DNA of 64,000 bases from Candidatus Nomurabacteria bacterium (GTDB lineage: Bacteria > Patescibacteriota > WWE3 > UBA101185 > UBA10185), in NCBI GenBank assembly GCA_020631855.1, contig JACKGU010000001.1:447597-511596 (forward strand), read 5' to 3'. Position numbers and translations under genes: made by a program. Shown here piece by piece: positions 5,517-62,962 of this stretch; within the stretch, counting starts at the first letter, position 1; each line of letters starts with the position of its first letter. The notes below the pieces were generated by a model, which was not told the DNA's origin, searched no databases, and was given only the letters and a program-made list of their open reading frames with translations.

Positions 5517-5850
5517 AGTATTATTTTATCACAGCAAAGGAAGCAAAAGCGCATGTAGCTCCCGTTCTATAACCTACGGCGTCAAACAGAAAAGTATTTG
5601 GTTATATTGCTGCCCTCTGCTATAATGCCTATTGCTATGTCAATAAAGAAAAAGAAAAACGACGCACAAAATAATAAGATGGCTCGCCGTTCAAGAAAAA
5701 AATCAAAACGAATAACTACTATGTAGTCTCTAACTTGTAGCGCCCGGGCCGGCTTTTAAATATTCCGGCCTTATCCAGCCAAAATGATAAAGCAATAAAA
5801 AGAGTAAATGCTTATATAAATCTCTGTGGTCGAGGTCTGTTTTAGTTAAA

Positions 5851-5972
5851 TTTATAATTTCGTTACTTAATACTATTTGCGCAAGATAGTAGATGTAGTT
5901 TACCCAGCATGTTGGTCTTTGCAACGTAAAGAAATTACAGCAAGCCGCCTGCTTAAGCTTGTGGTGGTTGAT
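5851..5972 (-). repeat. intergenic repeat family copy 1 (~120 nt), inverted relative to copy 2
   Basis: Reverse complement aligns along its full length with 7673-7793, 56201-56320, 62841-62962 and the reverse complement of 10612-10733. Shared core CTGTAATTTCTTT(A/G)C-NNN-GCAAAG...CATG(C/T)TGGGTAAACTAC...GTAACGAAATTATAAA. Confidence 0.8.
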
Positions 5973-6013
5973 AAATAGAAGCACTGTAGCAAAGACTGCA
6001 AATAACACTTAAA

Positions 6014-6793
6014 CTATGCGCTATCGCTACTTCCGCCGTACTTACGATCTCGTGTTGAATAGGCTTTAAGAGCCCTGTAAATAAGCTCTTCATCAAAATC
6101 GGGCAACAATACGTTTTCGGTGTAAAGTTCAGAGTAAACACTTTGCCAAGGCATCCATCCGCTTAACCTAAGCTCTCCGGCACCTCTAATAATAAGATCG
6201 GGGTAGGGGTATGGTTGATCGCCTGTATCGAGATAGCGCTTAAAAAATCGATAAGGGTATTTGTCGTGGTACATGCCATCGGTTTTTTCTAAATCACTAA
6301 AACTGATTTTTCCCTCCGTCACATCATCAAAGGCCTTCTTCATCGCTCTTAAAAGTTCGTCGTGCCCACCGTAGTCAAAAGCTATATTCAGGGTATGTTT
6401 GGTATTATTTAGTGTTTTTTCTTGCCACTTGTCGATAAGATCAATTACTTTTTTTGGCAGCCTATCTCTTCGCCCCAAGTGAATTAATCTTGCGCCGTCT
6501 TTATGGGCCTCGTTTCCCCACTTGTCTAAAGAGTAGGACAACAAACGAATTAGATTCTCAACCTCATTCTTATCACGATTTGCAAAATTTTCTGTTGATA
6601 AACCCCACACAGAGGCTGTATGAACCCCGATGACCCTGAGCTCTCTAGCCAGGGAGGCTATTACCTCTACGCCTTTGTTGTGACCTTCCATAGGAGAAAG
6701 TCCTCTTTGCCTTGCCCATGTTCTATTACCGTTAGGTAAAATGGCTATGTGGTTTGGCATTTTTTCAACTGGAATATCTCGATACTGACTCAT
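6014..6793 (-). CDS. uppS: undecaprenyl-diphosphate synthase (cis-prenyltransferase)
   Basis: HIAILPNGNRTWA (UPPS DGNxRWA-type motif), VIGVHTASVWGLSTENF, ELLRAMK, DLIIRGAGELRLSGW (the RTSGE-like C-terminal motif). Confidence 0.85.
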   Translation of the reverse strand: MSQYRDIPVEKMPNHIAILPNGNRTWARQRGLSPMEGHNKGVEVIASLARELRVIGVHTASVWGLSTENFANRDKNEVENLIRLLSYSLDKWGNEAHKDGARLIHLGRRDRLPKKVIDLIDKWQEKTLNNTKHTLNIAFDYGGHDELLRAMKKAFDDVTEGKISFSDLEKTDGMYHDKYPYRFFKRYLDTGDQPYPYPDLIIRGAGELRLSGWMPWQSVYSELYTENVLLPDFDEELIYRALKAYSTRDRKYGGSSDSA

Positions 6794-6857
6794 GTTTTAA
6801 CTTTTTATTTTACTAATAAAATCTACTAAAGATAGATGCCTTTCGTTTGTTTGTTTT

Positions 6858-7613
6858 ATGGCAGGCAAAACTAAACATGCTTTAACCTATTTAAGATCTA
6901 CGAGCTTGGTAATTATACCATTAAATATGCTGTATAATACACTTATGGACCTATTAGTTATCTCAAATTTTCTAGTAAAATACAAATACAAGCTTGTTCT
7001 TTCTTCAGCCCTTGGCATATTACTTGGGTCATTGGTTTTTATTACTCGCCCAACATACTTCAACGTAAGTCAAACCTATGCCATCTTAATTCAAACTGAA
7101 GAAAGCCCAAAACCTAAAATTCAACTACAAGCCGACCGATTATTTGATGCCGATTCTCCCCAAAATGAGGCGGAGGCTTTAACACGCTCCCTGGCCTGGA
7201 TAGCGCAATCCTCAAACTTTCAGTCATCCATAGAGGAAACGAGAATAAAATACAATAAACAAAATCCGCAGAAAGAAATTTCCGCAAACACAAAGATGAA
7301 AGTTCAGAACCCGGCACCGCACATACTACTAACAACTACCGTAGCGAGAGATAGAGAGTCTGCTTTCTGGTACCATAAAGTTTTAGAGCAGGCCCTGCAG
7401 GCACAAATTTTTGACCTTAATCCCACCATAGAACCTGACTTGAAACTTATCGTTTTAAACGAACAGCCCGAGATAAAGGAGGTTAAAGCCGCCCTACTTT
7501 ACTGGACAATCGTTGGAACGGCACTAGGTTTTGGGGGCGGGGCTTTTTTTCTAGCAACAAGGGAATACGTAAGCATGCAGCAAAATACAGTAAAAAAAGC
7601 GAAACGGAACTAA
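6858..7613 (+). CDS. bitopic membrane protein with Wzz/polysaccharide-copolymerase-like topology (hypothetical)
   Basis: One TM near the N-terminus and one near the C-terminus (LLYWTIVGTALGFGGGAFFLA) flank a ~180-aa hydrophilic domain. The call rests on topology only. Confidence 0.3.
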   Translation: MAGKTKHALTYLRSTSLVIIPLNMLYNTLMDLLVISNFLVKYKYKLVLSSALGILLGSLVFITRPTYFNVSQTYAILIQTEESPKPKIQLQADRLFDADSPQNEAEALTRSLAWIAQSSNFQSSIEETRIKYNKQNPQKEISANTKMKVQNPAPHILLTTTVARDRESAFWYHKVLEQALQAQIFDLNPTIEPDLKLIVLNEQPEIKEVKAALLYWTIVGTALGFGGGAFFLATREYVSMQQNTVKKAKRN

Positions 7614-7672
7614 TTTCGCATCAATTTTAAAGCGAGCTTAAAACACATAAACACACACTCCAACATATATAG

Positions 7673-7793
7673 ATCAACCACCACCAGCTTAAGCAGGCGG
7701 CCTGCTGTAATTTCTTTACGTTGCAAAGCTCAACATGCTGGATAAACTACAGCTACTATTTGCGTAAGTAGGTTTGAGTAACGAAATTATAAA
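7673..7793 (+). repeat. intergenic repeat family copy 2 (archetype)
   Basis: ATCAACCACCACCAGCTTAAGCAGGCGGCCTGCTGTAATTTCTTTACGTTGCAAAGCTCAACATGCTGGATAAACTACAGCTACTATTTGCGTAAGTAGGTTTGAGTAACGAAATTATAAA. Contains hairpins AGCAGG-CGG-CCTGCT and CTTT(A/G)C-NNN-GCAAAG. Ends ~10 nt before the GT2 gene start region. Confidence 0.8.
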
Positions 7794-7795
7794 TT

Positions 7796-8485
7796 GTGTA
7801 TAATGCTTTCATGAAACTAGCGCTAGTGGTCATTCCGGCTTACAACGAAGATTCGCAAATAGAACCTTTGCTGGGGCAAATCAAAGAAATTACTGATATT
7901 GACATAGTCGTTGTAAACGATGGCAGCACCGATAAAACACTGGAAGTATGCAAAAACCTAAACGTTAAATGTCTATCCCATTTAATAAATTTGGGATATG
8001 GGGCGGCCGTTAGAACGGGCTTTGCTTACGCAAAAAAACACCCAAACTACAAATATATTGTCACTATGGACGGAGACGGACAACATACCGTTGATCAATT
8101 AAAACTCTTATTGGAAGAGTGCAAAAAGAACCAGCTCGACCTTATAGTCGGAAGAAGGGTAAGAAAGGAGCAAATGCCAATAAGTAGAAAGGCTATTAAT
8201 GCTCTAGCCGACCTGTTTTTCTGGGCATTAAGCGGAAAGTACTTTGTAGACACACAGTCGGGACTTAAAGCAATACGTTTGAATTCCTTATATGATCTTG
8301 AGCTGAATTCCGTAGATTACGAACTTTGCACCGAGATCCTGCTAAAATATAGTAAAAAAAAGTGCAAAATAGGCTGGGTTGACATTGAAGCCCTGTACTC
8401 AGAATACTCACTTAACAAACCGGTTAAACAAAGGGTTATAAATGCTCTTTCAATGGTAATTAATTTGCTCAAAATATCTACATGA
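7796..8485 (+). CDS. family 2 glycosyltransferase, polyprenol-phosphate sugar transferase type (DPM1/GtrB/ArnC-like)
   Basis: LALVVIPAYNE...VVVNDGSTD...TMDGDGQH (DxD), typical GT2 N-terminal catalytic domain. It is short (229 aa) and lacks C-terminal TM helices. Confidence 0.85.
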   Translation: MYNAFMKLALVVIPAYNEDSQIEPLLGQIKEITDIDIVVVNDGSTDKTLEVCKNLNVKCLSHLINLGYGAAVRTGFAYAKKHPNYKYIVTMDGDGQHTVDQLKLLLEECKKNQLDLIVGRRVRKEQMPISRKAINALADLFFWALSGKYFVDTQSGLKAIRLNSLYDLELNSVDYELCTEILLKYSKKKCKIGWVDIEALYSEYSLNKPVKQRVINALSMVINLLKIST

Positions 8486-8820
8486 CTCTATATCAAATAA
8501 TATTATTAACGGCGCTTGGTATATTTTTTTTAAAACAACTAGTATCTATTAAAAAGACTTCGGGTAAAAACTTTTTTAGAACTTATGTGTGGCTGATACT
8601 TACGTTCGCCGGAGCGACTGTAATTGCCGACCCTCGACTGACCGCGGTGCTTGCACAAAAGTTCGGCATCGGTAGAGGTACTGATATTGTTGTATATACT
8701 GTGATCGGTTGGCTTTTCTACAAAATGTATAGGGCCGATCAGCAAATCTCCAAGCAACAAGAGCAATTGAACAAGCTAGTTAGCCGCATGGCCCTAAAAG
8801 ATACGAATGAGCAAAAATAA
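8482..8820 (+). CDS. small membrane protein, DUF2304-like, translationally coupled to the GT2 gene
   Basis: 112 aa with 2-3 TM helices. Its start overlaps the GT2 stop (ATGA). My recollection is that this family accompanies GT2 enzymes. I assigned the family from memory, not from a search. Confidence 0.45.
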   Translation: MTLYQIILLTALGIFFLKQLVSIKKTSGKNFFRTYVWLILTFAGATVIADPRLTAVLAQKFGIGRGTDIVVYTVIGWLFYKMYRADQQISKQQEQLNKLVSRMALKDTNEQK

Positions 8821-10618
8821 TCTAAAACAAAACCTACTAGCCACTTTACTCGTAATATTCCCGATCATGCTGTACGAGCTAAACAACAACCTTTTACAAG
8901 GACTGCTTGTAATAGGGGTGTCTGTATATTTAGGATGTTTCTACTACATTCTAAGAAAGCAGTTTATATTCTCCGACAGAGCATTAAAAATTATTGTATT
9001 AGCTGCATGCGCATCTGCAATTTTTCTTTCCATAACACATCCTAGGAAAAACTCTTACGATGGACACAACGCATATGAAAAAATGGTGGTAAATTTGGTG
9101 AACACAAACTTCAATATAGAATATTTAGGAATCCCGCAGTACCCCTTCTTAGGCGAATTATCACTAGCCGTACTATACAAAGCTCTCGGCCGCGAATACT
9201 ATTTAATATTTTTCGCATTAACAGGTATAGGGTTTGTTTTTTCTGCGCATCTTCTTTTCCGCGAACTGGCAATAAAAAAAGAGATTGCTCGCTTTGCAGT
9301 TTTTTTGCTTGTGTGCAATTCGGTTTTTGCGGCCATGCTACTGCACGAATACAAAATTGATCATTTTCTCGGCATGCTGTCCAACATATTTTTTATATTG
9401 TTTATCAAAGTACTCAAAACAGGTTCTTTAAAATACTATCTCTTGGCTGGAGTTATAGGAGGGGCCGCTCTTTTGACTAAAGTTACTTTTGGCCCGATTC
9501 TAGCCCTATGCTTAGCCTTCGGCACAATATACAAAATAAAGCTGCAGGCAAAAGAGCGGCCTATACTGATAAAAAAAGCTGTCTTGGAACTTGCCAAATT
9601 TTCATTGACAGCAATAGTGGTAGTTTTTTTAGTACTACTATGGACATATAAATTTGGGCTATATGTAGGTCCTAATATATACTTTTACCCACAAACGCAA
9701 AAAATCAAACCTCTGGCCTTAAGTACAAACAAAGAAGTTGCAGCAGCATGTAATAAAGAAATATTAGCAAAAGATCAGGGGCTATTTTTACCTAAATACA
9801 AGTTTCCTCTAATGCAACCAATTAAGGTCATTTTCTGGAGTTCGTTGGGAGAAGGTAGAGCCAGCAACGCTATTAGCATTGCTCGCCTTGAAACAACTAT
9901 GTACTTAGGAGTATTTTCTCTGTCTTTATGGCCACTTTATATGTTTGTCAAAAAAAAGCCTTTGGGCATTGCCGAGCTACTGATTATAATAAGCAGTGTT
10001 TATGTGTGGCTTTTTTTCTTAGAAGTACAAACACTAATTTGGTATCTAATTCCTGTTTTTTCTATAATTGCCCTGATCGCCTCCTCTACAACCACAGCGT
10101 TAATAAAAGACGGGATAATAAAAACATACCTAGTTTTTCTTATTCTTGGAACCACAACAGTATCTGTTATATTTTTACTGAGCATATCATTTAACGGATT
10201 AAAGGTCTCTGGAACAGGGGAAAAAACAAAGCAAGATCCATACATCACGTCAGGATATGATCTCGTTGTAAACACTTCTTCTACTATAGATTCTGTAATA
10301 GGCAACAATCCAGGATCTTATATTCTCGATGCCGCCTTACATCCATATTTTGTCTTTACAACCTACACTTCAAACTACTACGCAACTATAACGAGAAACA
10401 ATCTATACTTTCTCGAAAATACAGACACGGATCTAATGCGCGACGAGCTCATTTCAAAAAATGTCAGGTACATACTTGTTTCCAGAGCAAATCTTCTAAA
10501 CACATGGTATGACGGATGTGCGGAAGAAAACAACAGGACTTTGGACAAATTTCTAAATAAATATACGGTGCCCATCTTTCCATTAACAAGGACTCCGGTG
10601 CTGTTCAAAATTTTATAA
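8807..10618 (+). CDS. large polytopic membrane protein, probable GT-C glycosyltransferase partner of the GT2 enzyme
   Basis: 603 aa with ~12 or more TM helices. It overlaps the upstream gene by 14 nt (operon). The architecture resembles GtrC/PMT-type GT-C enzymes. No firm catalytic motif identified. Confidence 0.45.
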   Translation: MSKNNLKQNLLATLLVIFPIMLYELNNNLLQGLLVIGVSVYLGCFYYILRKQFIFSDRALKIIVLAACASAIFLSITHPRKNSYDGHNAYEKMVVNLVNTNFNIEYLGIPQYPFLGELSLAVLYKALGREYYLIFFALTGIGFVFSAHLLFRELAIKKEIARFAVFLLVCNSVFAAMLLHEYKIDHFLGMLSNIFFILFIKVLKTGSLKYYLLAGVIGGAALLTKVTFGPILALCLAFGTIYKIKLQAKERPILIKKAVLELAKFSLTAIVVVFLVLLWTYKFGLYVGPNIYFYPQTQKIKPLALSTNKEVAAACNKEILAKDQGLFLPKYKFPLMQPIKVIFWSSLGEGRASNAISIARLETTMYLGVFSLSLWPLYMFVKKKPLGIAELLIIISSVYVWLFFLEVQTLIWYLIPVFSIIALIASSTTTALIKDGIIKTYLVFLILGTTTVSVIFLLSISFNGLKVSGTGEKTKQDPYITSGYDLVVNTSSTIDSVIGNNPGSYILDAALHPYFVFTTYTSNYYATITRNNLYFLENTDTDLMRDELISKNVRYILVSRANLLNTWYDGCAEENNRTLDKFLNKYTVPIFPLTRTPVLFKIL

Positions 10619-10733
10619 TTTCGTTACTTAAAACTACTTGCGTAAATCAGCAGATGTATTTTACCTAACATTTCTGGGCTTTGCAGAGCAAAGAAATTAC
10701 AGCAAACCACCTGCGTAAGCTGGTGGCGGTTAA
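10612..10733 (-). repeat. intergenic repeat family copy 3
   Basis: Reverse complement aligns with the copy-2 consensus (…CCACCAGCTTACGCAGGTGG…CTGTAATTTCTTTGCTCTGCAAAGC…GTAACGAAATTATAA). Overlaps the stop codon of the 8807-10618 gene. Confidence 0.8.
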
Positions 10734-10750
10734 TAAGACGGTAAAATTTC

Positions 10751-11119
10751 CTAAACCCGAGGATTTTGAGAGAGAGTGTCGTCTTTAGTTATATCTTTAT
10801 AATTCTTTTTACGCCAATCTCGAATTTTAAGTGTTCCTCCCGAACTTTCAACTAATTCCCCAATGAAATACCCCAGTAAAAGATACACGATCATGGCAAA
10901 GAAAGCGGAAATATCAACAACCGAAGTCCTCCCTAACATTGGAGACGGAAATATGCCATTAAACGGGGCAAGCATGCCAGAGGTAAACTCGTACAGCCAT
11001 TTAACAAACGGTGCCGCAGTGCTTGCTCCTAAAAATTTTAGAATTATTCTAAAACCTAACAAAAATCCGACTACCATAGTTCCAATATCAATTATTTTTG
11101 CGATCTTTTTAGTGTTCAT
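10751..11119 (-). CDS. small membrane protein, possibly YggT/Ycf19 family
   Basis: 122 aa with two TM helices. The segment ...FPSPMLGRTSVVDISAFFAMIVYLLL resembles the YggT P-x-R...D-(L/I)-S-P motif. Weak call. Confidence 0.35.
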   Translation of the reverse strand: MNTKKIAKIIDIGTMVVGFLLGFRIILKFLGASTAAPFVKWLYEFTSGMLAPFNGIFPSPMLGRTSVVDISAFFAMIVYLLLGYFIGELVESSGGTLKIRDWRKKNYKDITKDDTLSQNPRV

Positions 11120-14481: not shown

Positions 14482-16143
14482 ATGATGTTATATAAAATGG
14501 CCTCCAAAATAAAATCACCAGGAAAACCAAAAACTCAAAATAACGAAATCGGGCCGAATCTGAAGAAGAACTTATTTTTAGTATTGGTATGGATACTAAT
14601 CTTGGGAACAGCCGCTTATTTAAGATTCTATAATATAAATTTTGGATTGCCGCAAAGCTTTCATGCAGACGAACCTGAACTTGTTGAGCCGGCAATAAAA
14701 TACACTTATGAAATACGTAAAATAATATCAAACAGGTCGTATGAGCAGCTTATACCTATTTCTTTTGTTTATGGCCAAGTCCCCACATATATACTGACAC
14801 CCATAATAATGACTTCAAGCAAATTAATGAACACGCTTGGTTACGCTTTCTCAAAGGAAACATTGTATGTAATAGCGAGAGCACTTTCTGCACTGCTTTC
14901 GCTAGTAATAATCCCTCTAACTCTTGCGTTATTTAATCTTGTAAACAAAAGGGAAAGTGCAAACAAAATAAAGGCGGCTTTGGTTGTTGTTTTAGCAACA
15001 GCGTATAACTGGAAATTAATTGTAATTGGACATTATGCAAATGCCGATATCTATCTGACTTTTTTCACCTTGCTCTCATCAATCTTTTTCTTGCAATACA
15101 TACAGAGCAGTACAAAGAAATTTCTTGTCTTATCGGCTGTTTTTTTCGGGCTTTCTGTAGGGACAAAAGTTACCGCACTCATAGTTCTGCCAATATACTT
15201 TTTCTTGCTATTTAAAAATAAAAGAATCTTTGCGATTGCGATATTCACACTATTAACTTTTGGGGCTTTTATTTTTTCAAATCCGTTTTCATGGGCTTTA
15301 GCACAGGATTTTGCATTTAGAGTTCTAACCCTAGCAACAAAAGAGAATGGCCTTGTTTTCGACTCGGCAAATTTATCATATACAAAATACCTAGTTGCGC
15401 TAGCTCAACAAGCATCTCCTATCGTGCTAGCTGCAGCAGTACTTGCTACGGCGCAAACTTCACTAAAACTTTTTCGAAAAAAAGAAAATGATACCGACAG
15501 AGCAACAAAAGACGCGCATATTTATTTGATTTTGTACGCTATGTTTTATATTGTATTTTATTCAATAAGCAACAGGCTTGTCGATCGATGGCTGTTACCG
15601 GTACTTCCAATAGTTTTTGTATATGCCGGCGTGTTTATTGAAAAACTAAACGGGAAGTTGGGGAATATCATATTCGCGTTATTTGTTTTATTGCTAATCT
15701 ACTCATATGGAGAAAAAGCTTTTCTATTAACAAAACAGTATCAAAGACAAACTCCTAAGTCCGAGGCTTACATTTGGGCGCAGTCCAACATAAGCGGCCC
15801 ACCAACAAAACTCGTGGTGACAGAAGAAGGTCTGGATCCAATGAATAAACTGCCCTCAACAACAGTTTTAACCTTCAACGTATATGAAAGCGAAAATGCC
15901 TACCTAGAATTTCCTCCTAACCCAAGCCTATATAATTATGTAATACTTAGTTCACGACCAATGTCTTACTTTAAAAACCCTATTATAAGCGAGAAATACC
16001 CTACATATGTGGCTGCTTGGTACAGTTTCGAGTCCACAATACAGAATAAAGAAAACTTTGAGTTGATTAGGTCTTTCTCCTTGCCCAAACCGGACTTAAT
16101 TAACGTCTCGGACGTTCATGTATACAAAAATCTAAACAAGTAG
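14482..16143 (+). CDS. polytopic membrane protein, GT-C glycosyltransferase-like (third paralogous-type membrane GT in the locus)
   Basis: 553 aa with more than 10 TM helices. Acidic DE pair in the first loop (SFHADEPELVE). Confidence 0.45.
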   Translation: MMLYKMASKIKSPGKPKTQNNEIGPNLKKNLFLVLVWILILGTAAYLRFYNINFGLPQSFHADEPELVEPAIKYTYEIRKIISNRSYEQLIPISFVYGQVPTYILTPIIMTSSKLMNTLGYAFSKETLYVIARALSALLSLVIIPLTLALFNLVNKRESANKIKAALVVVLATAYNWKLIVIGHYANADIYLTFFTLLSSIFFLQYIQSSTKKFLVLSAVFFGLSVGTKVTALIVLPIYFFLLFKNKRIFAIAIFTLLTFGAFIFSNPFSWALAQDFAFRVLTLATKENGLVFDSANLSYTKYLVALAQQASPIVLAAAVLATAQTSLKLFRKKENDTDRATKDAHIYLILYAMFYIVFYSISNRLVDRWLLPVLPIVFVYAGVFIEKLNGKLGNIIFALFVLLLIYSYGEKAFLLTKQYQRQTPKSEAYIWAQSNISGPPTKLVVTEEGLDPMNKLPSTTVLTFNVYESENAYLEFPPNPSLYNYVILSSRPMSYFKNPIISEKYPTYVAAWYSFESTIQNKENFELIRSFSLPKPDLINVSDVHVYKNLNK

Positions 16144-16160
16144 TTTGAGTTCCTTATATT

Positions 16161-17375
16161 CTATAGGTAATCTTTGAGACTCTTGCTTCTAGAAGGGTGT
16201 CGAAGCTTTCTAAGGGCTTTTGCTTCAATCTGCCTAATACGTTCGCGTGTGACACCAAACTCCTTGCCTACCTCTTCAAGTGTTCTGTTTCGACCGTCTC
16301 TTAAACCAAAGCGGAGCTCCAAAACTTTCTTTTCTCTAGGATTAAGTGTCTCAAGTACCTCGTCTATGTGGTCTTTTAACAAAACGTGGCTGGCAGAATC
16401 AAAAGGAGAAGCAATCGAAGTGTCTTCAATAAAATCTTTAAGAGAGCTGTCTTCTTCTCTCCCAACCGCTTTTTCCAGAGAGGCCGTATCTTGCATTATT
16501 TTCACAATCTCTCGGGCCTTTTCAACATCAATTTCCATCTCCTTTGCAACCTCCTCGGGTTTTGCGGGACGTTCAAGTTTCTGCTCTAAATCTCTGCTCA
16601 CCTTTCGGTACTTATTTATAGTTTCAATCATGTGAACCGGGATTCTAATTACACGAGCCTGATCGGCAATAGCCCTTGTTATTGCTTGGCGAACCCACCA
16701 TGTTGCATAGGTGGAAAATTTGTAACCTCTACGCCAATCAAACTTTTCAACCGCTTTCATAAGACCAATATTTCCCTCTTGAATCAAATCCAAAAAGGTA
16801 AGGCCTCTTCCCATGTAGCGTTTAGCTATAGAGACAACGAGCCTTAGGTTTGCGTTTATTAACCTTTGCTCTGCGCGATCGCACTCTTTTTTAGTTACTT
16901 TCTTTGAATAATTTTTAATTTCAGTTAAAACTTTAATGTTAATCTCGAAATGTTCGGCCGCCTGTTTGTCGGTAGGAGGCTTCTTATTTTCTTTTTTATA
17001 AGCACTTATGTATTTCTCATACTTTAATACTTCTACTTTACGCGCCAACTCAACCTCCTCAGCAGGAGTTAAAAGATCAACTTTTCCTATTTCTTTTAAA
17101 TACATTCGGACCGGGTCTACTGAAACTACTTTATCTAGTTTAATCTTTGATATGTCTAATTTTTCTAAGGTTAGTCTTTCGGCCTCTTTCACAGAATCAA
17201 CATCGTACACATCTACTGAGGCTTCGAGCAGCTTATCGTACAGAGTATCTAACAGTTCAATGTTTTCCTCTGCGTCAGGAAAGAATTCCAATATTTCGGA
17301 TTGGGTTATGTAACCTCTCTTTTTTCCCCTTGTTATTAACTTTTTAATGTTTTTTTCTAAATCTGTCGGTATCAT
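16161..17375 (-). CDS. rpoD: RNA polymerase sigma-70 factor
   Basis: Region 2 [36 protein letters not shown], region 4 [27 protein letters not shown]. Confidence 0.95.
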
Positions 17376-21930: not shown

Positions 21931-22131
21931 TTATAACCAATTCTTTTTCTTTAAATCTGTAAATAGTTCTGTATAGCCACAATCCTGGCACACATATGCA
22001 ACAACCTTAGAACGTAAATTGATCATTTTTTTATTAACATCAGATAAATATCCAGTTATGATTGCTGAGTTGCCAAGATTACCATGATCAATCTTTTCAC
22101 TACTGCACTTTGGGCATTTACACATCGCCAT
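21931..22131 (-). CDS. zinc-ribbon domain protein
   Basis: 66 aa with two CxxC pairs (CKCPKC ... CQDCGY). Strong SD AAGGAGGTG 6 nt upstream of the ATG. Confidence 0.5.
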   Translation of the reverse strand: MAMCKCPKCSSEKIDHGNLGNSAIITGYLSDVNKKMINLRSKVVAYVCQDCGYTELFTDLKKKNWL

Positions 22132-22173
22132 AATAGTTCACCTCCTTATAAGTTGAAAGTATTTCACTTAACG

Positions 22174-22308
22174 TCAGGATTATGAGAAGTCGTGCGTAGC
22201 ACGATTTGGGTGGAGAAGTCTGCAAGACTTCGTAACCTCATAATCCTTGTTATATTCCCCGAAGGGCTGAAATTTAGTGCAACGTCCCGAAGGGAAATTT
22301 CAGAGTTG
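22174..22308 (-). ncRNA. structured leader RNA element, copy A (5' leader of Zn-ribbon gene)
   Basis: Minus strand RNA: CUGAAAUUU / AAAUUUCAG 9-bp stem enclosing a CC-UUCG-GG hairpin, then a CCC-UUCG-GGG hairpin. An 11-bp stem AGGAUUAUGAG/CUCAUAAUCCU encloses GAAGUC-UUGCA-GACUUC and UCGUGC-UAC-GCACGA. A near-identical copy with compensatory changes lies at 24983-25116. Confidence 0.5.
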
Positions 22309-22341
22309 TCGTGTCTAAAAAAAATTGTAGTCGGGCACACA

Positions 22342-23671: not shown

Positions 23672-24925
23672 TTATTGCTTCATACGTTTTATTAAATCCT
23701 TTAGTTTAACAATCTCAATTTTATCTTCATCACGTCTTTTTACTTCTATTGCTTCTTGCGAAATTGTTTTATCGCTTAAAACTAATCTATAAGGACATCC
23801 GATGAGATCAGAATCAGCAAATTTTTCTCCAGGTCTTACACTTTCTCTATCATCAAGCAAAACATCAAAACCAGCTGAAGTAAGTTTCTCATAATATTCT
23901 TTTGCAAGCTGGCTGGCTTTATCAGTATTGGAAATGTTTAATAAGTGAATAAAAAATGGTGCGACTTCTTTTGGCCAAATAATCCCCTTATCATCGTTAC
24001 ACAATTCAACGATTGTGCCCATAATACGAGCTGGCGCTGTACCATAGCTTCCCATAACAACAGAATTAGATTTTCCTTCTTGATCTAAGTAACTCAAATG
24101 AAGAGCCTTTGAATACTTGGTTCCCAGTTTAAAAATATTTCCAACTTCAATAGATTTGGCTTTTTCTAGCTTATTTTTATCAATTTCTAATTCTTTCAAT
24201 ACTTCATCGCTGTAAACTTCTTTATTTATCGCAATATTTTTTTGCCTATCAATATAAATAATATCTTCACCTGCTTCGCAAATAGTTTGAAATTCGTGAC
24301 TAAATTTACAAAAAGAACCCCCACTGGCAAAAGTGAAAAAAGTTTGATCTCCAATTCCAGTTCTTTTAAAAATATTGCGGTAAGCATCAGTACATTTATT
24401 ATAAAAAGCGTCTAATTCTTCTTGTGTACGATTGAAAGAATATAAATCTTTCATGATAAATTCGCGAGTTCTTAATATCCCCGACTTAGCTCTTGTTTCA
24501 TTGCGAAACTTTGTTTGAAATTGATAAACATAAGCAGGCAAATCTTTGTAAGAACTAATGAATTTCTTCATTAGATTAGTCAAAGGCTCTTCATGAGTTG
24601 TAGCTAATCCAAGCTCAGCACCATTTTTTAGTTTTGTTTTGAACCATACGTCTATAACTTCATCATTCCATCTTTCAGTTTTTTGCCATACTTCTGGTGA
24701 TTGTAATGCTGTAAGTGATAATTTTTGGCCACCAATAGCATTCATTTCTTCTTGGATGATTCTTGTAATTTTCTCCATTACAATCAATCCTAATGGCAAA
24801 AATGAATAGGCGCCTGCCATTTCTTTGTCGATAAAGCCAGCTTGCAAAAGTAATTTCGCATTTAAACTTACTTCACCTTTAGAAATTGTTTTGCTTGTTT
24901 TTGTGAATAATTGAGATTGTTTCAT
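23672..24925 (-). CDS. proS: prolyl-tRNA synthetase, short bacterial form without editing insertion
   Basis: Class II motifs: QSQLFTKT...AGFI, motif 2 FRNETRAKSGILRTREFIMKD, motif 3 GSYGTAPARIMG. C-terminal anticodon-binding region. Confidence 0.9.
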   Translation of the reverse strand: MKQSQLFTKTSKTISKGEVSLNAKLLLQAGFIDKEMAGAYSFLPLGLIVMEKITRIIQEEMNAIGGQKLSLTALQSPEVWQKTERWNDEVIDVWFKTKLKNGAELGLATTHEEPLTNLMKKFISSYKDLPAYVYQFQTKFRNETRAKSGILRTREFIMKDLYSFNRTQEELDAFYNKCTDAYRNIFKRTGIGDQTFFTFASGGSFCKFSHEFQTICEAGEDIIYIDRQKNIAINKEVYSDEVLKELEIDKNKLEKAKSIEVGNIFKLGTKYSKALHLSYLDQEGKSNSVVMGSYGTAPARIMGTIVELCNDDKGIIWPKEVAPFFIHLLNISNTDKASQLAKEYYEKLTSAGFDVLLDDRESVRPGEKFADSDLIGCPYRLVLSDKTISQEAIEVKRRDEDKIEIVKLKDLIKRMKQ

Positions 24926-24982
24926 TGTAGGACGTGATATTATAAATTAACGTAAGGCACAGAATATAAATTTCACATAACA

Positions 24983-25116
24983 TCAGGGATAAAAGAAGTT
25001 TGCGAAGCAATTTTGGACGAAGAAACCTGCAAGGTTTCGTAGTCTTTTATCCCGTGTTATATTCCCCGAAGGGCTGAAATTTAGTGAAACGTCCCGAAGG
25101 GAAATTTCAGAGTTTG
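24983..25116 (-). ncRNA. structured leader RNA element, copy B (5' leader of proS)
   Basis: Same architecture as copy A. Outer stem GGGAUAAAAGA/UCUUUUAUCCC, inner hairpins GAAACC-UUGCA-GGUUUC and UUGC-UUC-GCAA, and an identical 65-nt UUCG-hairpin module. The 3' end overlaps the last codons of the hydrolase gene. Confidence 0.5.
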
Positions 25117-25667
25117 ATTTTTTGGCGTTCAATATACTTTTCAACTACTGTAATTATTTCAGGAAATTCAGATTTATTTACATCAGCTCCAAAATGTCCC
25201 TCATCCTTATACTCATGATATTCGGGTTCAATTTTGTCTTTGATAAATAAAGCTTCAGAAATTGGGATATATGGGTCATTCCTCGAGGCAAATAGTACAA
25301 TCTTTTCGGCGTTGCTTTTTATTTTGTCCCATTTCCACGGATTATCAAAGTATCCACTTTTCTTCTCGTGTTCATCGCCCAAATCTGTATAACAAGCGCC
25401 GACTAGAATTGCGAGCTTACATTTATTTTCCTCAAGATATCTTAGAATAGCTACAGCACCAGAGGAATGACCTATTAAAATCGCATCCTCGGTTGATAAT
25501 CTTTCCTTGATGAACGGAAGCCAATATTCTTTTCTTGCCAAATCAGGATCTGGCATATTTTCTGCAATTACATCCAATCCCAATTTGTGAAGTCCACTTT
25601 TCACATTTTGGAACCAATTTTCCGTAATGTCTGTATTGCCATTTCCTGGAATAATTATCGCTTTCAT
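25107..25667 (-). CDS. alpha/beta-hydrolase fold serine hydrolase (YdeN/RBBP9-like)
   Basis: 186 aa with GHSSGA (GxSxG) nucleophile elbow and downstream Asp/His candidates. Size and order fit the Ser_hydrolase family. Confidence 0.7.
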   Translation of the reverse strand: MKAIIIPGNGNTDITENWFQNVKSGLHKLGLDVIAENMPDPDLARKEYWLPFIKERLSTEDAILIGHSSGAVAILRYLEENKCKLAILVGACYTDLGDEHEKKSGYFDNPWKWDKIKSNAEKIVLFASRNDPYIPISEALFIKDKIEPEYHEYKDEGHFGADVNKSEFPEIITVVEKYIERQKIKL

Positions 25668-26055
25668 AATATTTATAAGTTTGATAACTAAATAAAGTTT
25701 ATGTTTTCAGAGCCGAAAAATCAAATTGAATATAACTCGTTTTTATACGATATCTTTTCACAATATACACCATGAGTCGTATATTATACGAGATGGTGGT
25801 AAATTTAGACCAAATAAAAACTGCCTTTATTTTACAATTTTCAAGGAATTGTGCAATCAGAGCTTCAAAAAACAGTACGAGAGTTAAAAATCAAAAACTT
25901 ACAGCCCCAAAACTGTAAAAAGTTATCTTTATGGCTTACGGAAATACTTTTCTTTTAAAGGCAGCGATTTTGCAAAGCTCGGCCAAGAAAACATTAGAGA
26001 TTTTCTACTTCATTGTGAGAAAAAGCACATTTCACCTCAAAGCAGGAATCTGTTT

Positions 26056-26691
26056 TTGAATAGTATCAAGTTTTACTATCGTAATGTCCTTAAGAATACA
26101 AAAAAAATCGAGGTTCAATTAGCTAAAAAGCCAAAGAGTTTACCCATTGTCTTATCACGAAGCGAAGTCGAGAAGATCTTAAAATCTCCCAAAAATGCAA
26201 AGCACAGACTCTTGTTGGCTCTTGCCTATGGAGCAGGACTACGAGTAAGCGAAGTTGTATCTCTGAAAATACAAGATTTGGATTTTGAAGAACTAACTGT
26301 GCACATTAAACAGGCGAAAGGACAAAAAGATCGAATAAGCGTAATGCCAGAAAGCTTGGCTGATAGTTTGAGGGGTTTAACTGCAGGGAAGGAAAGAGAC
26401 GATCTTGTCTTTGCTAGTGAGAGAGGCGGAAAGTTGGCAACGCGAACAGCACAGAAAATTTTTGAAAATGCGTTGAAGGACTCGAACGTAAAAAAAGATG
26501 CTACTTTTCATTCACTCCGACACTCCTTCGCGACGCATTTGCTTGAGAACGGAACTGATGTTCGCTATGTTCAAGAGTTGCTGGGGCATCAAAACATTAG
26601 AACAACTCAAAGATATACACAAGTAACCAACCCGAAGCTTAAAAATATAAGAAGCCCACTACGATTAAGGGTGAAGAAACTCGGCCTTTGA
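26056..26691 (+). CDS. tyrosine site-specific recombinase/integrase, catalytic C-terminal domain (N-terminal part frameshifted upstream at ~25818-26055)
   Basis: R...HSLRHSFATHLLENGTDVRYVQELLGHQNIRTTQRYTQV (R-H-R-Y catalytic tetrad region). Upstream 25860-26055 encodes the N-terminal SAM-like domain in another frame with a stop (ELQKTVRELKIKN... then YSPKTVKSYLYGLRKYFSFK). Paralog of the 47346-48261 remnant. Confidence 0.8.
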   Translation: MNSIKFYYRNVLKNTKKIEVQLAKKPKSLPIVLSRSEVEKILKSPKNAKHRLLLALAYGAGLRVSEVVSLKIQDLDFEELTVHIKQAKGQKDRISVMPESLADSLRGLTAGKERDDLVFASERGGKLATRTAQKIFENALKDSNVKKDATFHSLRHSFATHLLENGTDVRYVQELLGHQNIRTTQRYTQVTNPKLKNIRSPLRLRVKKLGL

Positions 26692-26773
26692 AAGATGAGA
26701 GGTCCGGCTTAAAGGAAAAATCGGTTTACGTGCCCTCGAGAGAGGTGACGAGCAAACAAAGACACTTCCTAAC

Positions 26774-26863
26774 TGGCGGAGGGAGAGGGATTCGAACCCT
26801 CGTGCCGGTTTCCCGACGCGTCGCTTTCCAGGCGAGCCGATTAGTCCACTCTCGCATCCCTCC
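26774..26863 (-). tRNA. tRNA-Ser (anticodon GGA), CCA encoded
   Basis: GGAGGGATGCGAGAGTGGACTAATCGGCTCGCCTGGAAAGCGACGCGTCGGGAAACCGGCACGAGGGTTCGAATCCCTCTCCCTCCGCCA. 7-bp acceptor, long variable arm, T-loop GGTTCGAATCC. Confidence 0.9.
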
Positions 26864-47345: not shown

Positions 47346-48261
47346 ATGTTAAACAGCTTTATGCAAACAGAATTACAAAAAACAGAAAGGGAGTTAAAAA
47401 TCAATAACTATAGCTTTAAAACCTCTAAAAGTTGTCTCTATGGCTTACGAAAGTATTTTTCTTTTAAAGAAAACAATTTAGCGGAATTTGAACTGGATAG
47501 CATTAAAAATTTTCTTCTCCAATGCCAACAAAAACGTATATCGCCTCAAAGCAGAAATTTATTTCTAAATGCAATTAAATTTTACTACCGTAATGTAGCA
47601 AAGAACATACAAAAAATCGATATTAGATCGGCTAAAGAGCCTAAAAGCCTACCTGCCGTTTTGTCTAGAAGTGAGGTAAAAAGAGTCTTGGAATCCCAAA
47701 AAACATTAAGCACAAGCTTCTGCTTTCACTTGCTTACGGGGCAGGGTTGAGAGTAGCGAAGTGGTTAACTTGACAGTACAAAATTTAGATCTTGAAGAGC
47801 TGACAGTGCATGTTAAACAAGCAAAAGGCCAAAAAGATAGAATAAGCGTAATACCGAAAGCCTTAGTTACCGGTTTGGATAATTTAACTACAGCAAAAAA
47901 GCCGGGGACATTGTCTTTGAAAGCGAACGTGGGGGAAAATTATCCACCAGAACAGCACAAAAAGTTTTTAAAAATGCTTTACGAGCATCTAGTATAAAAA
48001 AGAACGCCACTTTTCATTCACTAACACTCTTTTGCAACACACTTGCTTGAAAATGGTACCGATGTCCGCTATGTACAAAACTTCTTGGGCATCAAAATAT
48101 CAGAACAACACAAAGATATACACAGGTCACCAATCCATTACTCAAAAATATTAAAAGTCCGCTATTATAAAAATGGGGGAAACCGGCCTTTGACTAGACT
48201 TTCGATAGCGGGACAAAATAAAAAATCCAATTTGTGCTTGGAATTGGCCGGTAAGCTCTAA
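47346..48261 (+). pseudogene. tyrosine recombinase/integrase pseudogene (three frame-disrupted fragments), paralog of 26056-26691
   Basis: ORFs 47346-47750, 47761-47997 and 48043-48261 together align with the 25.8-26.7 kb integrase (…SLPAVLSRSEV…LAYGAGLRVAEVVNL…TVHVKQAKGQKDRISV…ATFHSL…LENGTDVRYVQNFLG…). Frameshifts and stops interrupt it. Confidence 0.8.
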
Positions 48262-48293
48262 CCTCGAGCGAGCCAACAAAGACATTTTCCAAC

Positions 48294-48381
48294 TGGCGGA
48301 GGGTGTGGGATTCGAACCCACGGACGGTTTTATCCGTCACGGCTTAGCAAGCCGCTGCATTAGCCACTCTGCCAACCCTCC
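48294..48381 (-). tRNA. tRNA-Ser (anticodon GCU), CCA encoded
   Basis: GGAGGGTTGGCAGAGTGGCTAATGCAGCGGCTTGCTAAGCCGTGACGGATAAAACCGTCCGTGGGTTCGAATCCCACACCCTCCGCCA. Long variable arm. Confidence 0.9.
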
Positions 48382-56106: not shown

Positions 56107-56200
56107 TGTGCTTCTGACTTAAGTCCGTAGCCTCTTCTTCACTGCTTCTTTGTTACACTTTCGCCTTCGAATCTAATTTATAAATCTTATCTCAGCAAAT

Positions 56201-56320
56201 AAACCACCACCGGCTTACGCATATGGTTTTCTGTAATTTCTTTGCATTGCAAAGCCCGGCATGTTGGGTAAACTACGTCTACTGGCCCACGCAAGCAGTT
56301 TTAGGTAACGAAATTATAAA
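56201..56320 (+). repeat. intergenic repeat family copy 4
   Basis: AAACCACCACCGGCTTACGC...CTGTAATTTCTTTGCATTGCAAAGCCCGGCATGTTGGGTAAACTACGTCTACTGG...GGTAACGAAATTATAAA, between metG and the stop of the 56331 gene. Confidence 0.8.
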
Positions 56321-62840: not shown

Positions 62841-62962
62841 ATCAACTGTCTCCAGCTTACGCAGGTTATTTGCTGTAACTTCTTTGCGCTGCAAAGCGCA
62901 ACATGTTGGGTAAACTATATCTACTAGTTTACGCAAGTAGTTTTATGTAATGAAATTATAAA
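62841..62962 (+). repeat. intergenic repeat family copy 5
   Basis: ...CTCCAGCTTACGCAGG...CTGTAACTTCTTTGCGCTGCAAAGCGCAACATGTTGGGTAAACTATATCTACTAG...GTAATGAAATTATAAA, between greA and the stop of the substrate-binding-protein gene. Confidence 0.8.

Follow-up and report, generated by a model that had tools for sequence, protein, structure and literature searches.

Introduction

Insertion sequences of the IS200/IS605 family insert 3' of a target sequence without duplicating it (PMC5027513), and the family of ~120-nt intergenic repeats analysed here, from a 64,000-nt stretch of the genome of Candidatus Nomurabacteria bacterium (contig JACKGU010000001.1, positions 447,597 to 511,596; the whole stretch is referred to as the window), probably belongs to their gene-less derivatives. 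The transposase of IS608 recognises subterminal imperfect palindromes of the top strand. Cleavage on the left takes place at TTAC (the left cleavage site, C_L), outside the element and 19 nt 5' of the left hairpin, and cleavage on the right at TCAA (the right cleavage site, C_R), within the element and 10 nt 3' of the right hairpin (PMC3201880). For either site, recognition involves base pairing with the tetranucleotide that precedes the hairpin foot, AAAG being the left guide (G_L) for TTAC; one A per guide (A+18 on the left, and A-34, the second guide base, on the right) is inserted into the protein, and at position 3 of the cleavage site an A that stays unpaired touches the first T (PMC3201880). 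Gene-less palindrome-associated transposable elements (PATEs) with conserved ends have been described in Geobacillus, and TTTAT, found next to ISGst2, is a known target-adjacent motif of IS605-type elements (PMC10055086).

A previous reading of the letters of the window (referred to as the sequence-only reading) had reported five copies of the repeat and had suggested REP/MITE-like mobile repeats, a mobile promoter/terminator cassette or small RNA genes as possible identities. The first of these is retained here and narrowed to an element of the IS200/IS605 type, and the other two are set aside. That the repeats are mobile non-autonomous elements of some kind is highly likely, and their specific identity as a ~117-nt non-autonomous IS200/IS605-type element, in other words a PATE, is the reading we favour as probable.

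Results

Five intergenic copies share fixed ends and a fixed target

The copies reported at 5851-5972, 7673-7793, 10612-10733, 56201-56320 and 62841-62962 were all verified, together with their alignment over the full length. They can be aligned over ~122 nt, at both sides of which the homology is cut off sharply, with a mean column identity of 75% when the unalignable flanks are counted in. Exact matches to the conserved blocks CTGTAANTTCTTTNCNNNGCAAAG and GTAAYGAAATTATAAA occur at just these five places, shuffled sequence being expected to hold 0.00 and 0.33 of them, and an nhmmer profile retrieves each copy in the window with E = 1e-38. Beyond these five, the same search retrieved neither copies nor fragments from the 64 kb, whether at E <= 10 or, with the --max option, at E <= 50. 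Open reading frames (ORFs) and the genes called on the source contig agree that all five copies are intergenic, as had been claimed, and the gene stops reported beside them at 10616-10618, 56331 and 62978 are correct; a start that had been placed at 7796 is called at 7811 in the database. The adjoining genes are unrelated to each other (PMT_2 glycosyltransferases, UppS, GT2, YggT, MetRS, GreA and a solute-binding protein), and as the flanks are unrelated too, an origin of the copies as remnants of one duplicated flanking region is excluded.

We aligned twelve full copies, from the window and beyond, on the strand complementary to the one that the sequence-only reading had called '+'. On this strand, referred to as the top strand, TTAT abuts one end only at all 12 independent insertion sites, extended to TTTAT at 10 of them. 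The opposite flank is variable and the target is never repeated there, so that no target-site duplication exists. The sequence-only reading had proposed a check for defined ends and such duplications: the ends are sharp and the target is fixed, and the lack of a duplication is as expected for the IS200/IS605 type. Terminal inverted repeats are likewise absent, the two ends, AATTTCG... and ...GGTTGAT, being unrelated. The only inverted repeat, TGTAATTTC with GAAATTATA, has one arm ~35 nt inside the element; a long-range helix of these arms as the closing stem of an RNA was considered and dropped, both arms being nearly invariant. The ends are also marked by a tandem dimer elsewhere on the contig, in which two units are joined head to tail exactly at ...GGTTGAT/AATTTCG... 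(the slash marks the junction), the second unit thus abutting TGAT and not TTAT.

By these criteria the extents given earlier describe the repeats correctly, and the transposed unit is 5 nt shorter at what had been taken for its 3' end; the 4 nt that follow each unit there, ATAA (TTAT on the opposite strand), are the target site. Copy 1 occupies 5856-5972 (117 nt, top strand +) with its target TTAT at 5852-5855, and copy 3 occupies 10617-10734 (118 nt, top strand +) with TTAT at 10613-10616. The other three have their top strand on the minus strand of the window: copy 2 at 7673-7788 (116 nt; ends placed from the twelve-copy alignment and the tandem junction), copy 4 at 56199-56315 (117 nt; target 56316-56319) and copy 5 at 62841-62957 (117 nt; target 62958-62961). 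Altogether the unit measures 116-118 nt in eleven copies, 123 nt in one degraded copy and 143 nt in a copy from another genome. At copy 3 the TAA stop codon of the gene at 8807-10618 straddles the junction T/AA, made up of the last T of TTAT and the AA of the element (10613-10618); the right flank also begins with AA, and the same stop codon would have been present before the insertion.

Paired hairpins and guide sequences resemble the ends of IS608

Read from 5' to 3' on the top strand, the consensus leads from the target (T)TTAT in the flank into a left-end linker, AATTTCGTTACTT, and continues with AAAA, a hairpin CTACT-T-GC-GTAA-GC-T-AGTAG, the spacer ATGTAGTTTA, two short central hairpins (CCCAA-CATG-TTGGG and CTTTGC-NNN-GCAAAG, the latter with a variable loop), the segment AAATTACAG, CAAA, a second long hairpin CCACC-T-GC-GTAA-GC-T-GGTGG, and finally TGGT and TGAT, after which the flank begins. 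The left end can thus be summarised as AATTTCGTTAC leading to a hairpin and the right end as a hairpin leading to GGTTGAT. The two long imperfect hairpins, termed IP_L and IP_R, stand in direct orientation and are identical at 18 of 21 positions in the consensus; their local alignment score of 27 compares with 12.1 +/- 1.9 in shuffled sequences and was reached in 0 of 2000 shuffles. Both are predicted in the fold of the single-stranded DNA (ssDNA). The left cleavage site lies 17 nt from the foot of IP_L, and the end of the element lies 8 nt from the foot of IP_R.

The tetranucleotides at the hairpin feet carry the comparison with IS608 further. The pairing register was taken from IS608 (G1 with C2, G3 with C1, G4 with C4), and the inserted A was taken as position 2 of both guides; the right guide (G_R) of IS608 is reportedly GAAT. 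In this register the consensus guides AAAA (left) and CAAA (right) fit the cleavage sites TTAT and TGAT in all six pairs, and the tetranucleotides predicted from the guides are exactly those found at the two boundaries of the homology. The bases implied by the IS608 sequences, A at guide position 2 and T and A at cleavage positions 1 and 3, are kept in 12 of 12 copies, and copy 4 has a compensated right end in which G_R AAAA stands with C_R TTAT. We also tried the '+' strand of the sequence-only reading as the active one: guide position 2 is then not A, the predicted cleavage sites mismatch, and the mirror orientation fails throughout.

In copy 2, all parts of which lie on the minus strand, C_L is the TTAT at 7789-7792, outside the element (TTTAT with the next base), and the first 13 nt of the element form the linker AATTTCGTTACTC at 7776-7788. 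G_L follows at 7772-7775 as the 4 nt 5' of the IP_L foot and reads AAAC here, IP_L spans 7753-7771, and the two central hairpins span 7714-7742. G_R, at 7701-7704, reads CAGG in this copy and precedes IP_R at 7681-7700, and C_R is TGAT at 7673-7676, the last 4 nt of the element. The left-end linker is nearly invariant among the copies and complementary to the conserved block 5' of G_R: the two best-conserved blocks of the element, of which (TAT/)AATTTC belongs to the left end and GAAATTACA immediately precedes G_R, are complementary to each other. This complementarity might help the ends of so short an element to meet.

A possible orientation bias with respect to replication

All 16 bins of the window have a negative GC skew. 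In a second, 22-kb stretch of the same contig (L043) the skew is positive in 5 of 6 bins, and its sign changes at dnaA and the rpmH-rnpA-yidC-dnaN cluster (L026 16146-17716), ~4.4-6 kb to the right of the window. As the skew is negative in every bin, the window lies wholly on one replichore, beside the origin. For 9 of 11 copies the active strand is on the lagging-strand template (binomial P = 0.033; Fisher P = 0.045), a suggestive bias in a small sample with two exceptions. Such an orientation bias has been described for the IS200/IS605 family (PMC5027513).

The repeats show no marks of a selected RNA and no excess of promoter or terminator signals

In a search of Rfam 15 the window had no match at the gathering score, and the region 5700-10900 had none even at E <= 10. 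Among the twelve aligned copies, 83.6% of the stem cells are paired, as compared to 84.6% when the partners are shuffled, with 16% unpaired; pairs changed on both sides number 2, against 3.0 expected in shuffles, and all five covariation measures lie at or below their shuffled controls. In the RNAalifold analysis that had been proposed as a check, the covariation term is +1.4 to +1.6 with five copies and +0.07 with twelve. When folded as ssDNA, a copy near the consensus reaches z = -3.9, and copy 4, with z ~0, folds no better than its shuffles. The difference between CTTGCT in copy 1 and CCTGCT in copy 2, correctly observed by the sequence-only reading, had been taken there as a hint of a function at the RNA level; the twelve copies show no excess of pairing or covariation, and some have lost the fold altogether. 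A selected structured RNA is unlikely, because the changes in the stems are uncompensated.

The choice of strand in that proposal is reversed as well. Counted over the four hairpins, 29 G.T cells and 28 mismatches fall on the top strand, versus 13 G.T cells and 44 mismatches on the other strand. The geometry of the ends, the guide/cleavage rule and the suggestive orientation relative to replication point to the strand opposite to '+' as the structured one, acting as ssDNA, and these G.T-versus-A.C counts lean towards it as well.

Promoter-like and terminator-like matches in the regions of the copies are no commoner than in shuffles. The arrangement TTGCAA-16-TAAACT, which had been likened to a -35/-10 pair, agrees with the promoter consensus at 8 of 12 positions and stays below the threshold of the promoter scan. 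The terminator scan passes only copies 1 and 2 (AGCAGGCGGCCTGCT followed by GTAATTTCTT), and the orientation to the genes is mixed: the 11 sites mapped on the contig comprise 5 between convergent genes, 5 between tandem genes (2 co-directional, 3 antisense) and 1 between divergent genes. The copies are 72-95% identical in pairwise comparison and radiate in a star-like manner about the consensus, the copy from another genome being no more distant than those within the genome. Such traits characterise insertions that decay once they have landed and from which selection has removed those in genes and promoters; they are not those of an RNA maintained for its fold.

A second, unrelated intergenic repeat of ~145 nt occurs in the window at 22170-22320 and 24977-25125, with 85% identity between its two copies. 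Its minus strand folds into a multi-stem structure with two CCCUUCGGG hairpins, in which both bases differ between the copies in 7 of 40 pairs without loss of pairing, and it has no match in Rfam at E <= 1. On the minus strand the copies stand just upstream of a small Zn-ribbon gene (21931-22131) and of a class-II aminoacyl-tRNA synthetase gene (23672-24925), making this repeat a candidate structured leader or cis-regulatory RNA. With 7 compensated pairs between only two copies, it demonstrates that compensation is detectable in this window when present.

The family has a patchy distribution beyond the window

The 520-kb contig that contains the window carries six more copies, one just to the right of the window and five in the 22-kb stretch across dnaA, and a seventh extra copy is found on a short contig of the same species (L020). 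A contiguous 80 kb holds 6 copies, about one per 13 kb. The copy nearest to the family consensus, 82-89% identical to all others, lies ~320-440 nt past the right end of the window (L026 12092-12208), between a solute-binding-protein gene and a Wzy_C gene. The 22-kb stretch contains two single copies, the tandem dimer and one copy with a degraded half. The dimer (L043 11813-12046) is situated ~48 kb to the right of the window, flanked by an ABC-transporter gene and a gene for a 1110-residue protein, and is present in two other assemblies too. The most degraded copy (L043 15546-15668), recognisable only in its left-end half, lies ~110 nt from the tmRNA gene (15778-16181, beside smpB). As in the window, the neighbours of the extra copies are unrelated housekeeping and envelope genes.

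The host genome has a G+C content of 38%, and the same species occurs nearly unchanged in many metagenomes. Pattern scans of genomes and metagenomes returned, besides chance matches, one Saccharibacteria metagenome-assembled genome and three short contigs; one of the latter (L013) belongs to the species of the window, its ABC-transporter protein being 100% identical, and the other two are taken to come from this species as well. The sole copy found outside the species is that of the Saccharibacteria genome (34% G+C; contig CAZHJE010000027, L004 87-229), which is 72-82% identical to the others. An insertion of 27 nt in this copy folds into a 7-bp hairpin without mismatches, GTTGCTT-GCG-AAGCAAC, which sits precisely where the left guide AAAA would otherwise meet the original left palindrome. 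Read on the opposite strand, the hairpin is followed by TTTT and lies just downstream of a co-oriented gene, and it could be a terminator that the element has acquired.

Five related genomes, located through homologues of UppS (58-63% identical) or of the ABC transporter and covering 88 kb in total, contain no copy, and their genes are arranged too differently for empty sites to be compared; the closest other genomes have a UppS identity of only 58-66% and share little gene order. Scans of viral contigs with patterns for the element, its hairpins, the left end and the right end produced chance matches at most, none of which was extended by nhmmer, and BLASTN against plasmid and phage collections gave no match. 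A literature search on miniature inverted-repeat transposable elements (MITEs) or non-coding RNA repeats in Patescibacteria returned nothing relevant. The distribution of the family is thus patchy.

No copy of the 117-nt family is present between 11 and 56 kb of the window. This interval contains two modules of ~1 kb, at 25849-26863 and 47359-48381, which are 72-83% identical in pieces and each have a phage-integrase-type gene beside a tRNA gene: an integrase at 26056-26691 with a tRNA at 26777-26863 in the first, and an integrase at 47346-47750 together with a 75-residue fragment (the gene looks split) and a tRNA at 48297-48381 in the second. The 21 kb between the modules encode helix-turn-helix proteins, a DUF5659 protein and a 1696-residue M48-peptidase protein, and the region may represent one or two integrated elements.

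Discussion

The reading of the repeats as a PATE implies a transposition cycle of the single-strand, peel-and-paste IS200/IS605 kind. A Y1 HUH transposase (TnpA) encoded elsewhere would bind both subterminal hairpins where the replication fork exposes ssDNA. The tetranucleotide in front of each hairpin would serve as a guide by pairing with a cleavage site, TTAT in the left flank or TGAT at the right end, and the top strand would leave as a circle and re-insert 3' of another TTAT, without duplication. The ends, the target, the paired hairpins, the guide/cleavage complementarity, the tandem junction, the decay of the copies and a suggestive strand bias are observed, and from them we infer both the transposase and the actual mobility of the family. 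Possible effects on the host, for example of gene-3'-end hairpins acting as terminators or stabilisers, would be secondary.

Several observations weigh against this reading. Neither a Y1 transposase TnpA nor a TnpB is found among the called genes in the ~110 kb of the genome examined, and no empty site or presence/absence polymorphism was seen, all sampled strains being nearly identical with the same copies. The guide/cleavage rule is extrapolated from a single paradigm, IS608, and one guide/cleavage pair is disrupted in several of the copies. Copies 1 and 3 are oriented the wrong way with respect to replication (2 of 11), leaving a bias that is only marginally significant. AATTTC and GAAATTACA are the most conserved parts of the element, yet they are not those that the IS608 model expects to be most constrained. 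Finally, a short hairpin GCAGG-NNN-YYTGC, followed by the U-rich UGUAAUUUCUUU, pairs only on the '+' strand of the sequence-only reading, with 13 G.U cells there versus 16 mismatches on the top strand, which the model leaves unexplained. The columns of this hairpin overlap IP_R and G_R, so that it may be a by-product; together with UGUAAUUUCUUU it may also have a terminator-like role.

Alternatively, the copies could be another kind of non-autonomous repeat, either REP/BIME (REPIN)-like and moved by RAYT, a Y1 enzyme related to TnpA, or a MITE moved by a DDE transposase. They are indeed dispersed, intergenic and rich in hairpins, and are overrepresented between convergent genes (5 of 11 sites, with 1 divergent); no transposase of any kind was found nearby, and REPs resemble the subterminal hairpins of IS200/IS605 elements and are handled by Y1 transposases (PMC3333891). 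A DDE-type MITE is nevertheless unlikely because terminal inverted repeats and a target-site duplication are both absent, and a BIME or REPIN is at odds with hairpins that are direct rather than inverted and with a fixed 117-nt unit that has distinct left and right ends, unlike the doublets. Both the asymmetry of the spacing and the complementarity between guides and cleavage sites match IS200/IS605 ends in particular, and we regard this group of explanations as unlikely. A further reading sees more than junk in the family: in an episymbiont genome of roughly 1 Mb in which no transposase has been seen, the copies are mobilised in trans by a non-resident TnpA (from a phage, a plasmid or the host bacterium) or have been co-opted as guide-like RNAs or terminators. 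The co-opted copies could be TATAAT-driven guide-like RNAs that run into the flank, like PATEs that bear omega-RNAs, or hairpin terminators at gene ends; we consider this reading quite improbable.

If the repeats instead encoded small RNAs, or a structured RNA acting in cis, for example within a 3'-UTR (untranslated region), one transcribed strand would have been selected for its fold. The four hairpins with z = -2.7 to -3.9 in some copies are what this predicts, as are the stem of CTTTGC-NNN-GCAAAG, kept while the loop varies, the series of G-C, G-U and A-U pairs in GCAGG-NNN-YYTGC on the '+' strand, the two compensated pairs in IP_R and the TATAAT that arises at the junction TTAT/AAT. Against these stand the lack of an Rfam match and of covariation, the 16% of stem cells that are unpaired, the shuffle-like folding of copy 4, the near balance of co-directional and antisense copies in spacers between tandem genes (2 versus 3), and the absence of a conserved -35 box or terminator, all of which leave a selected RNA very unlikely. 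A promoter or terminator cassette recruited by the host, whose copies are kept for starting or terminating transcription of their neighbours, would account for all copies but one adjoining at least one gene 3' end, for the terminator-like appearance of copies 1 and 2 and for the gain, in the Saccharibacteria copy, of a 7-bp G+C-rich hairpin directly before TTTT downstream of a co-oriented gene. As the matches to such signals are no commoner than in shuffles, the TTGCAA-16-TAAACT pair is sub-threshold, the orientation to flanking genes is mixed and one copy lies between divergent genes, we hold it to be very unlikely too; a location at gene 3' ends is moreover what purifying selection against insertions into promoters and genes leaves for any mobile element. 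Two further identities were rejected: integron attC sites, as the repeats have no R'/R'' core sites and occur in both orientations among housekeeping genes, and a coding mini-ORF, as the copies differ by 1-nt indels.

The PATE reading accounts for a conspicuous repeat that databases do not name and averts its annotation as a small RNA, promoter or terminator. It would mean that a streamlined genome of the candidate phyla radiation (CPR) can carry a derivative of a single-strand transposon at about one copy per 13 kb, which bears on how mobile DNA persists in ultra-small episymbionts. Since the copies may mark the direction of replication and their targets (TTTAT) are predictable, they can serve to tell strains apart and as a starting point in the search for the cognate TnpA or TnpB of these little-known lineages. 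Beyond these points it would be ordinary selfish DNA, and the family is most likely a known kind of such DNA, not a new RNA gene.

Among described systems, classical MITEs (Correia/NEMIS, RUP, ERIC, BOX) share with the repeat a length of 100-150 nt, an intergenic location near gene ends and the presence of hairpins, but their termini are inverted repeats and a TA or other short target is usually duplicated beside them; both features are missing here. REP/BIME (REPIN) sequences are likewise intergenic palindromes in high copy number, with IS200/IS605-like hairpins that are handled on single strands by a Y1 HUH enzyme; they are units of 20-40 nt in inverted pairs with variable linkers, in contrast to the one fixed 117-nt unit in the window. 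The likeness to IS608 extends to the architecture of the ends: the left cleavage site lies outside the element (at 17 versus 19 nt) and the right one inside (at 8 versus 10 nt), the guide tetranucleotide preceding either hairpin foot can pair with its cleavage site in the register of IS608, the conserved bases include A at guide position 2 and T and A at cleavage positions 1 and 3, and the left end has extra hairpins 3' of IP_L. IS608 differs in having tnpA and tnpB and in using TTAC and TCAA, whereas the present element is gene-less and uses TTAT and TGAT, and its transposase and activity are presumed. The nearest known systems are the PATEs of Geobacillus stearothermophilus (ISGst; PMC10055086) and, reportedly, of Haloquadratum walsbyi (PMC3119063). 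The family differs from them in a sequence unrelated to Rfam or to the phage, plasmid and viral collections searched, in its ultra-small CPR host with no tnpA or tnpB among ~110 kb of called genes, and in a length of 117 nt that is probably too short for the omega-RNA scaffold that many PATEs encode. With the PATEs it has in common that it is short and free of ORFs, that similar subterminal hairpins stand in direct orientation at both ends without terminal inverted repeats or target-site duplications, that it inserts 3' of a fixed tetra- or pentanucleotide (TTTAT, as beside ISGst2), and that it is present in many copies, presumably mobilised in trans.

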